DNA of 64,000 bases, from NCBI GenBank assembly GCA_038213805.1, contig JBBQSO010000006.1:43040-107039 (forward strand). The letters are read 5' to 3'. This DNA comes from Planctomycetota bacterium (lineage in GTDB: Bacteria; Planctomycetota; UBA11346). The notes under the pieces were generated by a model. The model saw nothing but the letters and a program-made list of their open reading frames with translations, was not told the DNA's origin and did not search any database. Within the stretch, counting starts at the first letter, position 1; each line of letters begins with the position of its first letter. Shown piece after piece: positions 14,961-64,000 of this stretch. A program made the position numbers and the translations under genes.

Positions 14961-17186
14961 ATTTCCCGTCGCAACCGTGATCAGCCGCCGTCCCACCACA
15001 CCGCCGAGGCCACCCCACCGGCCCAGCCGGCGCTGGCCGCCGCGCGCAGGTCCGCGCTGGGCCTGCCGGGGCCCGCCTTCCTGCCGGCCCTGGGTGGGCC
15101 CATACAGTCCCATGAACCGCTCCTCACCCGGATCCAGGCCATCTGGCTGGCTGCCACGACCCTGGTGATGCTCGGCATCGCCGCGTACGCCAATTCGTTC
15201 GCTGGCCGCTTCATGTTCGACGACACCATGTGGATCGGCGACCCGCCGCCGGCCTTCCACGACATCTGGTGGTACACGCAGGGGCTGTTCTTCTCCAGCG
15301 GCCGACGCTTCATCGAGCTCACGGCGCAGATCAACTGGGCGCTCGGCCACGAGAACTTGTTCGGCTGGCACCTCTTCAACGTCAGTGTCCACCTCGGCTG
15401 CGGCCTGGCGGTGTTCGGGGTGGCGCGCCGCACCCTGCTCAGCGCCCCCATGGGCGGGCGCTTCGCCGGCTCGGCGACCTGGCTGGCCTGGGCGATCGCG
15501 GCGATCTTCCTGGTCCACCCGCTCAACAGCGAGGCGGTGACCTTCATCTGGCAGCGTGCGCACGCGGTGATGGCGCTCTGCCAGATCCTTGCGCTCTACG
15601 TCATCATCCGCGCCGACTCCGCTCAGGGCAACGCCCGATGGATCTGTTGGGGCCTCGCCCTGCTGCTGTGCGACATCGGGCTCGACACCAAGGCGCAGAT
15701 GGTCGCCATGCCGCTGCTGGTGTTGATCTACGACCGCACCTTCCTCAGCGGCACCTGGACTACGCTGGTCGCGCGCAACTGGCCGCTCTACGCCGGACTG
15801 GCGGCGGTGTGGGCAGTGAGTGTCGGCAATCTCTCCGCGACCATGGGCGGACCGGGCAGCGACATCGGCAGCCGTGGCGTGATGCCCGATGAGCAGGGCA
15901 GCGGCACCATGACCCGCCTGGAGTATGCGCGCGCCCAGCCCGAGGTGGTGCTGCGCTATCTCGGGCTGCTGTTCTGGCCGCGCCAGCTCTGCCTTGACTA
16001 CGTGTGGGGCATCCCGCCGCTCAGCGCCGCCCTGGTGCCGTGGTTCGCCGGTCTCGCCGCGCTGGCTGCGGCGTCAGCCCTCGCGCTGTGGCGCTGGCCG
16101 CTGTGGGGTTTCCTTGGGGTGTGGTTCTTCCTCAACCTCGGGCCGTCCTCCAGCGTCATCCCGCGGCCCGACGTGATGGTCGAGCACCGCATGTACGTGC
16201 CGATGATCGCCTTGGCCGCGTTGGTGGTGGTTGGCGGCTGGCTGCTCGCCGGGCGCGCCTGCAAAGACCTGCGCCTCGTCCTGCCGGTGGCGGGTGGAGC
16301 GCTGGCGGTGCTAGTGGTCGCGCTCGGTTGGCGCACCGTGGTCCGCAATCAGGATTACCAGGACCATGAGGTGATGTGGCGTCAGGTCATCGCCGTCTCG
16401 CCCAGCAATCCGCGCGCCCACCTCAACCTCGGCACCACCCTCGGTTCGCGCGACCGCCACGAGGAGGCGCTGGTCGAGTTCGGCCTCGCGGCGAAGTTCA
16501 AGGGCATCTACCCGATGGCCCATTACAATCGCGGCACCTCACTCGAAAAACTCAAGCGCAACGAGGAGGCGGTCGAGGCCTACCGCGAGGCGACGCGCGA
16601 GAACCAGGGCTATGCCGAAGCGTGGAACAACCTCGGCGGCGTGCTCATCACCCTTGGCCGTCCGGAGGAGTCGCTGGTGCCGCTGCAGCGCGCGATCACT
16701 ATCCGCGAGAACCAGCAGGCGCCGTACGGCGTCGCCTACAACAACTACGGCAACGCCCTCATCCAGCTCGGCAAGGCCAAGGAGGCGCTGCCCTTCCTCG
16801 AGAAGGCTGTGCTCTACCGCCCGAAGCTGGCCGAGGCGTGGTACAACCTCGGCAATTCCCACGTCGCCTTCGGCGACTTCGCGAAGGCGCTGCCCGCGTA
16901 CCAGCAGGCCGTGCAGATCAACCCGGACTACGCCGAGGCCCACCACAATCTCGCGCTGATGCTCGGCAACGCGCGCCGCTACCGCGAAGCTTACGAGCAG
17001 GACCGGAAAGCGCTCGAGCTGCGCCCGGTGTACGAGCAGGCCCAGCACACCATCCAGCGCTGGGAGCTCGCCCTCAAGCAGGGCGACGCAGCTGCGCCCG
17101 CGGTGACCCTGCCGTCGGCGCCTGCCGCGCCTGCCGCGCCGAGCGGAGCGCCGGCCCAGAACGGGTTGGCGACCGCGGGGAAGTGA
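14961..17186 (+). CDS. TMTC-like membrane glycosyltransferase (GT-C fold) with C-terminal TPR repeats
   Basis: YANSF.G.FMFDD, WHLFNV..H, FLVHPLNSEAVT.I.QR, LLFWP.QL.LDY, EHRMYVP motifs then about 7 TPRs. First canonical start is GTG/ATG 15165/15168 inside TM1; proposed start is ATT 14961. Confidence 0.82.
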   Translation: MSRRNRDQPPSHHTAEATPPAQPALAAARRSALGLPGPAFLPALGGPIQSHEPLLTRIQAIWLAATTLVMLGIAAYANSFAGRFMFDDTMWIGDPPPAFHDIWWYTQGLFFSSGRRFIELTAQINWALGHENLFGWHLFNVSVHLGCGLAVFGVARRTLLSAPMGGRFAGSATWLAWAIAAIFLVHPLNSEAVTFIWQRAHAVMALCQILALYVIIRADSAQGNARWICWGLALLLCDIGLDTKAQMVAMPLLVLIYDRTFLSGTWTTLVARNWPLYAGLAAVWAVSVGNLSATMGGPGSDIGSRGVMPDEQGSGTMTRLEYARAQPEVVLRYLGLLFWPRQLCLDYVWGIPPLSAALVPWFAGLAALAAASALALWRWPLWGFLGVWFFLNLGPSSSVIPRPDVMVEHRMYVPMIALAALVVVGGWLLAGRACKDLRLVLPVAGGALAVLVVALGWRTVVRNQDYQDHEVMWRQVIAVSPSNPRAHLNLGTTLGSRDRHEEALVEFGLAAKFKGIYPMAHYNRGTSLEKLKRNEEAVEAYREATRENQGYAEAWNNLGGVLITLGRPEESLVPLQRAITIRENQQAPYGVAYNNYGNALIQLGKAKEALPFLEKAVLYRPKLAEAWYNLGNSHVAFGDFAKALPAYQQAVQINPDYAEAHHNLALMLGNARRYREAYEQDRKALELRPVYEQAQHTIQRWELALKQGDAAAPAVTLPSAPAAPAAPSGAPAQNGLATAGK

Positions 17187-17220
17187 CGCGCTGCAGCGAA
17201 GGCGCCAGGGAGGTTGTCCT

Positions 17221-17580
17221 TCACGTCTGGCGCTGGATAAGGGCGCCGAGCATGCGGCCGATCTGGGAGATCTCGTCCTGGAGATGCAGTGCCGACGGAG
17301 TCGGGCAGAGTCCGATGTCGCATGCGAGGATGAGGTGGCAGCGCAGCTCGCCTGCGGACGCCTTGGCGATGCGCAGGAAGTAGGCGTACTCGTTACGATT
17401 ATCGCGTTCCGCGCCCTCGGCGATATTGGCCGCGATGCTGATGGCAGCACGCTGGATCTGATCGCGGAACGGGAAGTCGGTGGCGATACGCGTCGTCCGG
17501 ACGAACCGGTACGTATCCGCCGCGAGTTTCCTGGCCCGCTGCCACACGATGAGATTTTCGAATTTCGAAGTCGTCTGCAT
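17221..17580 (-). CDS. Four helix bundle protein (23S rRNA IVS protein family)
   Basis: FENLIVWQ...DQIQRAAISIAANIAEG.ER...FLRIAKAS.GEL signature; AAGGAGG SD before ATG 17580. Confidence 0.92.
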   Translation of the reverse strand: MQTTSKFENLIVWQRARKLAADTYRFVRTTRIATDFPFRDQIQRAAISIAANIAEGAERDNRNEYAYFLRIAKASAGELRCHLILACDIGLCPTPSALHLQDEISQIGRMLGALIQRQT

Positions 17581-17746
17581 GGAAACCTCCTTGGGTTCCC
17601 ACCCCACCACCAGGTCGCGCGCAGGGGTCAAGGACGGCGCGTCCCGCGCCGCCGCGCCCCGTGGGCGAGGCGCAGCCGGAGCTCCTTGACGCCGAGCACG
17701 ACCGGTACAATCGATGGAACCGAGGAGATGGGCAACTCCCGGAGCG

Positions 17747-17767
17747 CGCGCCTCGCGCCTCGCGCCT
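17747..17767. repeat. (CGCGCCT)x3 tandem repeat upstream of the four-helix-bundle gene
   Basis: Direct reading; partial reverse complement at 17663-17675. Confidence 0.7.
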
Positions 17768-63351: not shown

Positions 63352-63461
63352 GGGGGTGATCTAAAGGGCCGTGCGGGCTTCGGCTAGCGTGAAGTCGATG
63401 GTCTGCGCGCAGCGTCGCGTGCGCTCGCTGCGCGGCGCGCGCCCGCGGGTGGCAGCCACGC

Positions 63462-63830
63462 CTACTTGCCGCTGGGGCCGAGCGTGCTACCGGCCGCGCC
63501 TGAGGGTCTTGCCGCGGCCGTGCCGGCGTTCTGGTGCGGGGTACCCAGCTTGGCCGCGTAGTGGTCGGGGTTGGCCGCGAACTTGCGCGCGCAGCCCTTG
63601 CAGCAGAAACGGTATTCCTGCCCTTTGTAGACGATCGCCGGTACCGCCGGGTCGATCTTCTCGTTTGAGACCAGGCAGGTGTCGAGCGGGTACGGCCGGA
63701 CCCCGTCCGCGGCCGGGGCCGCACCCAGGCAGGTCGCGAGCAGCAGCACGCACGCGCACCGCCAGGCCGCGCGGGAGGCACCGGGCAGGGCATGCAGCAG
63801 GATGGCGCGCAGGGTGCGGGCGGAAATCAT
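63462..63830 (-). CDS. Exported YHS/TRASH-like metal-binding protein
   Basis: YPLDTCLVS.EK...YKGQEYRFCCKGC.RKF.ANP.HY; start position uncertain. Confidence 0.8.
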   Translation of the reverse strand: MISARTLRAILLHALPGASRAAWRCACVLLLATCLGAAPAADGVRPYPLDTCLVSNEKIDPAVPAIVYKGQEYRFCCKGCARKFAANPDHYAAKLGTPHQNAGTAAARPSGAAGSTLGPSGK

Positions 63831-63976
63831 GGTGGAAACTGCTCCTCGGCGGTGCGGCCGGTCGGCCGCCGGGACTGATCCCCCGCAACGGGGGAAGGTC
63901 GCTTCAGCGTGATACGTTCGTCGCGCGGTGGCGTTTTAGGAAGCGATGTGGAGGGTTGGGGGGTGGGGGGGAGGAC

Positions 63977-64000
63977 GGCTGATGGCTGATGGCTGATGGC
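63977..64000. repeat. (GGCTGAT)n tandem heptamer, truncated by the window end
   Basis: GGCTGATGGCTGATGGCTGATGGC. Confidence 0.8.

Follow-up and report, generated by a model that had tools for sequence, protein, structure and literature searches.

What are the inverted pairs of short tandem repeats that recur between the genes of a Planctomycetota genome? The window analyzed here is a stretch of 64,000 nucleotides that forms the final 64 kb of a contig (G000:C6:43040-107039), in an assembly of 5.5 Mb, 69% G+C and 90% completeness (G000). A preliminary description of the window, made from its letters, listed about nine intergenic loci with a shared architecture, in which an array of 7- or 8-nt units is followed by a spacer and then by the reverse complement of the array. 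An element of this kind would be a gene-less pair of fixed-polarity arms that elsewhere enclose a gene for a GxxExxY nuclease or a four-helix-bundle protein. The reading that we favor, and to which we give an even chance, is that these are DNA-level selfish gene-plus-repeat cassettes, mostly present as gene-less copies, whose cargo protein would recognize its own arm. Fixed polarity, coupling of arms to cargo clades, gain and loss, swaps between families, nesting, and rewriting of arms around a retained spacer are all observed.

Arm strength was expressed as a periodic score; in shuffled intergenic DNA its 95th percentile was 6-8 and its highest values were 9-12. At the five loci with both arms intact, arms scored 15-35, above this maximum, and folding z-scores were -4.4 to -11.9. 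The proposed nine-locus architecture held for these five; in two others one arm has decayed, an eighth is truncated where the contig stops, and the ninth, at 17640-17767, was misread, as described below. The elements, which have no strand, are as follows (G010 is a close relative, about 92% alike to G000).

36907..36996, no strand: GGAGTGC-family element whose decayed left arm retains one unit (the same state is found in G010); arm scores 8/26, z -3.6
39757..39840, no strand: AGACCCT-family element, right arm decayed; arm scores 46/11, z -3.8
42842..42970, no strand: CGCCAAGA element with an 8-mer unit, both arms intact; arm scores 22/15
45837..46053, no strand: GGAGRCGC element; arm scores 15/17; arms match the GxxExxY cassette on contig C28 of G000
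50599..50777, no strand: GTCCGGAA element; arm scores 29/35; arms as in the four-helix-bundle cassette on contig C29
58933..59123, no strand: GGAGRCGC element with GxxExxY-type arms, both intact; arm scores 18/18
61364..61513, no strand: GTCCGGAA element, both arms intact; arm scores 32/32
63977..64000, no strand: GGCTGAT element truncated where the contig stops, with its left arm present; arms as in the four-helix-bundle cassette on contig C19

The end of contig C92 carries the left arm of the last of these elements, followed by a spacer and the right arm, and its G010 counterpart has GGCTGAC units. GGCTGAT arrays stand at 20 of 360 G000 contig ends; the elements thus break the assembly and are under-counted. 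A GxxExxY cassette of G055 has arms like those of the CGCCAAGA element, whose junction is occupied in G007 by another 8-mer element. Seven unit sequences are present in the window, as had been claimed, but they are not all unrelated, since single arms switch between units. An Rfam search of the window gave no match. The element at 50599..50777 runs over the 3' ends of both convergent open reading frames (ORFs; 49795-50646 and 50728-52167), so both of its arms would be translated.

The same architecture is widespread in G000, where gene positions were taken from a hexamer-based gene caller made for this analysis. Exact arrays of at least three copies numbered 411 at period 7, 89 at period 8, 13 at period 9 and 0 at period 10. 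Approximate arrays had an inverted partner within 250 nt in 236/540 cases at period 7 and 157/242 at period 8, the numbers for control windows at a distance of 3 kb being 19 and 3; among arrays of period 6 the count was 2/167, and among those of period 9 it was 2/61. Pairing yielded 256 elements and 227 orphan arms, and 13 pairs had long spacers, about nine of which look like chance pairings around ordinary genes. Spacers were mostly 60-120 nt long and arms had a median of 4.4 units. Every family of paired arrays had a single polarity (GTCCGGAA 124/124, GGCTGAT 111/111, AGACCCT 40/40, GGAGTGC 33/33), and the phases at which arms end were fixed.

Evidence that these arms belong with particular genes came from filled cassettes, whose cargo is either PF13366/TIGR04256 (GxxExxY) or PF05635 (four-helix bundle). 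G000 has one GxxExxY gene and five PF05635 genes. Among these, the four-helix-bundle gene on C19 is enclosed by GGCTGAT arms, that on C29 by GTCCGGAA arms, and the GxxExxY gene on C28 by GGAGRCGC arms, and the three kinds of arm recur in five window elements (63977 for C19; 50599 and 61364 for C29; 45837 and 58933 for C28). The earlier idea of non-autonomous units with a conserved architecture is supported. Of 30 GxxExxY loci that were fetched, 29 were examined (one came without upstream DNA), and 26 of these were enclosed by their own inverted arms, with periods of 8, 9 or 10, compared with 31 of 812 mismatched pairs. Among 28 four-helix-bundle loci, arms were found at 9 of the 15 without a detected leader (a fold-back structure described below), always with period 7, and at 0 of the 13 with one. 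The suspected association of the repeats with both gene families is therefore supported. The accompanying claim that unit lengths are never multiples of 3 holds in G000 and fails in its relatives, where 13 of the 26 GxxExxY arms have period 9.

Phylogenetic trees, in which junctions such as that in the rtc operon were named from a by-eye reading of flanking peptides, tied arm type to cargo protein. Four-helix-bundle proteins with GTCC arms form one clade (99/96) spread over three junctions, and eight GxxExxY proteins from the rtc operon form another (99/98). Within the latter, G000 is sister to G038, which belongs to another genus and has the same arm, and not to G010, whose rtc-operon site holds another GxxExxY subclade with another arm. 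The combined pattern of tree and arm points to whole-cassette replacement at this site. Spacers of gene-less elements were also considered as remnants of cargo. When 232 spacers were searched with profiles, 0 protein matches and 1 DNA match per family came up at E<1 (best E 0.16), and own-family spacers showed no better alignment to their filled cassette (p 0.06-0.75). The spacers are not recognizable as cargo remnants and appear to be neutral filler. As separate observations, short tandem duplications of one arm and the adjoining gene ends lie beside several filled cassettes (L012, L013, L061, L084, L065), and GxxExxY cassettes at L068, L085 and L075 adjoin sequences that, by eye, resemble integron attC sites.

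Comparison with relatives indicated rapid turnover. At 41 orthologous G000/G010 junctions, a sample biased because G010 contigs were chosen mostly for carrying arrays, the same family was found at 30, different families at 6, and an element in one genome only at 5; de-duplication had removed four other junctions (three same family, one different). An extra family was added or nested at 10 of the 30 same-family junctions. The 39757 junction holds AGACCCT in G000, GTCCGGAA in G010 and nothing in G001 and G004, and the 61364 junction is likewise empty in G001 and G004, with a 7-mer element of another unit in G002 and the same unit around another spacer in G005. Presence/absence variation, raised in the preliminary description as a point to check, is thus found. 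The AGACCCT family comprises 55 arrays in G000 versus 3 pattern matches in G010. Spacer identity between G000 and G010 is 73% (15 pairs), compared with 87% for 65 other intergenic regions, 86% for fourfold sites and 94% for flanks. Arms can also change while the spacer is kept: at 5 of 11 GGCTGA junctions a homologous spacer (68-83% identity in the four such junctions with usable alignments) is flanked on both sides by arms that read mostly GGCTGAC in G010 but GGCTGAT in G000, the remaining six junctions being mixed or one-armed. At another site (G000:C48:21166-21507), a nested GGCTGA/GGAGACGC element of G010 corresponds in position to a Y1 transposase gene of G000 that has palindromic flanks of its own.

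The position of the elements agrees with the earlier claim that they lie close to stop codons. Element ends facing a stop are within 40 nt of it in 231/273 cases (median 9 nt), whereas ends facing a start are within 40 nt in 56/201 (median 71 nt), and 64 elements lie at convergent gene junctions versus 38 expected (p 1e-5). Under the selfish-cassette reading, the cargo protein would set off nick-and-repair on recognizing its own arm in single-stranded DNA that has folded. The single-stranded intermediate may come from replication, transformation or conjugation, and the copying step would be repair by recombination or template switching. Elements would persist chiefly right after stop codons, as an insertion is least damaging at that position. 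G000 has a ComEC gene, which allows DNA uptake but does not demonstrate it. A more specific proposal, which we put forward only tentatively, is that the cassettes form a widespread class, selfish and transposase-free: each small nuclease or Avd-like protein would, on single-stranded DNA, read its own tandem word of 7-9 nt and regenerate it, write mirror-image arms into new junctions and overwrite old ones.

Several observations weigh against this interpretation. Matches at another locus were found for 38 of 232 spacers and are mostly repeat residue, leaving 194/232 without one; mostly single-copy spacers are unlike recent whole-unit transposition. No cargo for AGACCCT or GGAGTGC arms was found in G000. 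Arrays of GTCCGGAA do not closely track their cognate protein across 48 genomes (14 with arrays, 11 with the protein), and they are abundant in G005, G006, G038, G044 and G057, where the query did not find the protein (completeness 62-85%). In a survey of eight genomes, with 94-100 kb sampled in each, element density bore a mixed relation to cargo count: it was 0 in three cargo-free genomes and 0-1 in G043, G045 and G057, and G043 and G057 have many cargo genes yet 1 and 0 elements per 100 kb. Four-helix-bundle proteins are not known to have catalytic activity. The promoter-like boxes of the leader are 14-15 nt apart, not 17. Finally, 591 of 3965 Asp codon sites differ between G000 and G010, with a GAT-over-GAC bias in G000 (336 vs 255); this bias is mild, which makes point mutation alone an improbable source of the GGCTGAC/GGCTGAT switch.

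Could the elements have arisen without a dedicated protein? Polymerase slippage could expand 7-8-mers, template switching could mirror the arm, and small genes could ride in the resulting stable hairpins. The number of units per arm (2 to more than 20), the median arm purity of 97%, and unique spacers that diverge faster than fourfold sites are consistent with such an origin, as is the lack of a reverse transcriptase match (PF00078) in the 90% complete G000. Nevertheless, we consider it unlikely, since it leaves unexplained the single polarity of each family over more than 100 loci, the same unit switch at independent loci, the fixed end phases of arms, and an arm period that tracks cargo family. 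The preliminary description had suggested, as one option, RNA processing or stability hairpins. If stems were selected in RNA, pairing of the arms in mRNA would serve RNase III cleavage, stability or coupling and would hide an inserted gene in the manner of rRNA intervening sequences. Strong folding (z down to -11.9), placement right after stops, the excess between convergent genes and the RNase III gene of G000 fit this model, as does the ORF of the Coxiella intervening sequence, which the accessible text of one report places in the same protein family (PMC4990558). However, mismatches in the arms of 143 elements show no G-U excess on the transcribed strand (G-U 127 vs A-C 147, p 0.25), and U-rich tails occur at 15/289 element ends. 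In 8 of 20 filled cassettes, the only in-frame ATG of the next host gene lies inside the stem, before the 3' arm (GTG/TTG starts not counted); translation would then run through the arm, and the start would be lost on clean excision. Moreover, the corresponding junctions of G001 and G004 are without elements. Selected RNA stems are therefore a rather unlikely explanation, and the hairpin suggestion is not sustained, although RNase III, being present, may still cut at the arms.

Mobilization by a host transposase working in trans (Y1/RAYT or DDE), as for classical MITEs (miniature transposable elements with inverted repeats) or REPINs, would account for inverted terminal arms, nesting and lineage-specific bursts. 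Five Y1 transposase matches are present in G000, and one minor family, ACGGAG, has a spacer and flanks common to different loci. We regard this model as quite improbable: these arms enclose 0 of the 5 Y1 genes (four carry different palindromes, and the fifth has an element on its upstream side only), and no target duplication was seen by eye at 21 junctions differing in length, where flanks are diverged and usually replaced. MITE-like terminal inverted repeats of fixed polarity are present, but the main families lack the shared interior of MITEs.

Repetitive extragenic palindromes (REPs), their REPIN doublets and bacterial interspersed mosaic elements, which are associated with RAYT transposases, are intergenic, lie after stop codons, form inverted doublets with variable spacers, nest, and expand in lineage-specific bursts. 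The elements described here resemble them in lying between genes after stops and in their inverted doublets, nesting and bursts, and differ in that the units are 7-9-nt tandem words rather than tagged palindromes and no Y1 gene is enclosed. A closer parallel is offered by genes for Ssn nucleases, which, according to the accessible text, are flanked by their own hairpin repeats (PMC11893778). As far as that text goes, the Ssn system with NTS/SRM repeats likewise pairs a small single-domain gene with its own oriented repeat, has hundreds of dispersed copies and includes many gene-repeat pairs; Ssn is, however, a GIY-YIG protein with a 20-50 nt hairpin repeat, whereas the cassettes here carry PF13366 or PF05635 and, as their repeat, tandem arrays that pair across a long spacer. 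By analogy, Ssn/SRM is the best working model, although the cassettes fall outside it on protein fold, their cargo not being GIY-YIG. A small GIY-YIG gene on C53 is without such arms, and DUF559 was not found in G000. In Xanthomonas, inverted pairs of GGGAATC heptamers have about four units, with 70 and 75 cases of convergent pairs (PMC4692102). They share with our elements the heptamer arrays, convergent pairs, nearness to stop codons and length variation between relatives; the single G-rich unit was read as a quadruplex and the accessible text names no cargo gene, whereas many units, cargo coupling and replacement are found here. ORF-bearing 23S rRNA intervening sequences, as far as described in the portion available (PMC4990558), also carry the same protein family in a stem-bounded insert (compare C19 and C29), but our inserts lie between protein-coding genes and have stems made of tandem repeats; all five G000 PF05635 genes lie outside an rRNA context, as read from their flanks. 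The cassettes belong neither to these intervening sequences, nor to RAYT/REP, nor to diversity-generating retroelements, for whose Avd protein the NF033474 score was 29.9 bits against a cut-off of 80. TAACTGA direct repeats have been reported in Beggiatoaceae, and the accessible text does not mention four-helix genes (PMC4679880). No published link of these arms to PF05635 or GxxExxY genes, and no demonstrated function for either family, was found in the literature searched, which left most subscription journals and supplements outside its coverage.

The four-helix-bundle gene of the window, to which one element had been tied, is not enclosed by arms and belongs to a second, leader-bearing class.

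17221..17580, minus strand: four-helix-bundle gene (PF05635/TIGR02436), 119 amino acids, leader-bearing class; nearest solved sequence 2GSC (XCC0516)
17586..17727, minus strand: conserved fold-back leader, in which GTCAAGG (17627-17633) pairs with CCTTGAC (17684-17690)
17747..17767, minus strand: orphan (AGGCGCG)x3 array, upstream of the leader and overlapping the kinase stop codon

The paired element claimed at 17640-17767 dissolves on this reading: its (CGCGCCT)x3 array scores 9 (z -0.2) and lacks a partner, and what was taken for the left arm is part of the conserved leader hairpin. A partner for the 17747 array was sought and not found anywhere in 17187 to 17746; the same array also stands before a cassette copy on contig C728 of G010. 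The orthologous site in G010 measures 36 nt versus 579 nt in G000, the cassette being absent, and G010 carries similar cassettes at three other loci.

G000 has exactly three such leader hairpins, every one before a PF05635 gene. In 16 leader copies found through the gene, TTGAC was invariant and 10 of 17 predicted pairs showed changes on both sides. The exact leader pattern occurs in at least 131 stretches from Planctomycetota, Acidobacteriota and several proteobacterial groups, and a four-helix-bundle gene lies downstream in 31 of 80 fetched stretches; five other genes picked from behind the leader encode DUF932, antirestriction, ArdC-N, RadC and ParB proteins. The window leader has outward-facing -35/-10-like boxes at 17686-17691 and 17706-17711. 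Read outward, the distal arm has TTGACG followed at 14-15 nt by TANNNT in 35 of 67 copies, and the gene-facing arm in 0 of 67. Most of the -10-like TANNNT box is unpaired in the predicted fold of the antisense strand; in the predicted sense RNA the outer stem covers the ribosome-binding site, which is paired. The leader is likely to be a single-stranded-DNA promoter, predicted to fire only from single-stranded DNA. According to the accessible text on Frpo/ssi (PMC11541004), these are fold-backs with -35/-10-like boxes before anti-restriction, RadC, DUF932 and ParB genes, as in the leader; the main text is without the words "four helix". The leader differs in being chromosomal, in preceding a four-helix-bundle gene and in its box spacing, and is likened to Frpo by layout rather than by sequence. 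In G000, leader-bearing four-helix-bundle genes at C9:21240-21600 and C115:11500-12500 lie among long, mostly unpaired arrays of NCGAG-type heptamers. On gammaproteobacterial contigs (L267-L269, L259-L260, L293-L294), the leader is repeated at spacings of about 0.8-1.1 kb before DUF932 and RadC genes.

Heptamer repeats in bacteria have been described but, as far as the accessible text goes, left unexplained (PMC4692102). If true, the transposase-free cassette model would account for the heptamer-repeat excess of bacterial genomes and would assign a function to PF05635 and GxxExxY proteins. Were the pairing of protein and repeat real, it would constitute a third gene-plus-repeat system beside RAYT/REP and Ssn/SRM and a possible source of sequence-specific single-strand tools; because defined proteins are paired with defined DNA words, binding, cutting and seeding are directly testable. 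The leader would extend the single-strand promoter design to chromosomal cassettes, and its class of genes would switch on only when DNA enters the cell as a single strand.

Elsewhere in the window, an ORF of more than 4100 amino acids (61-12447), open past the window start and containing about 28 copies of a 285-nt (95-amino-acid) repeat, resembles a gene for a giant surface protein. The interval 17766-24430 holds two divergent Ser/Thr kinase genes, whose products have an FHA domain in one case and a fused formylglycine-generating-enzyme-like domain in the other; genes for a cadherin/Ig protein and another formylglycine-generating-enzyme-like protein follow.

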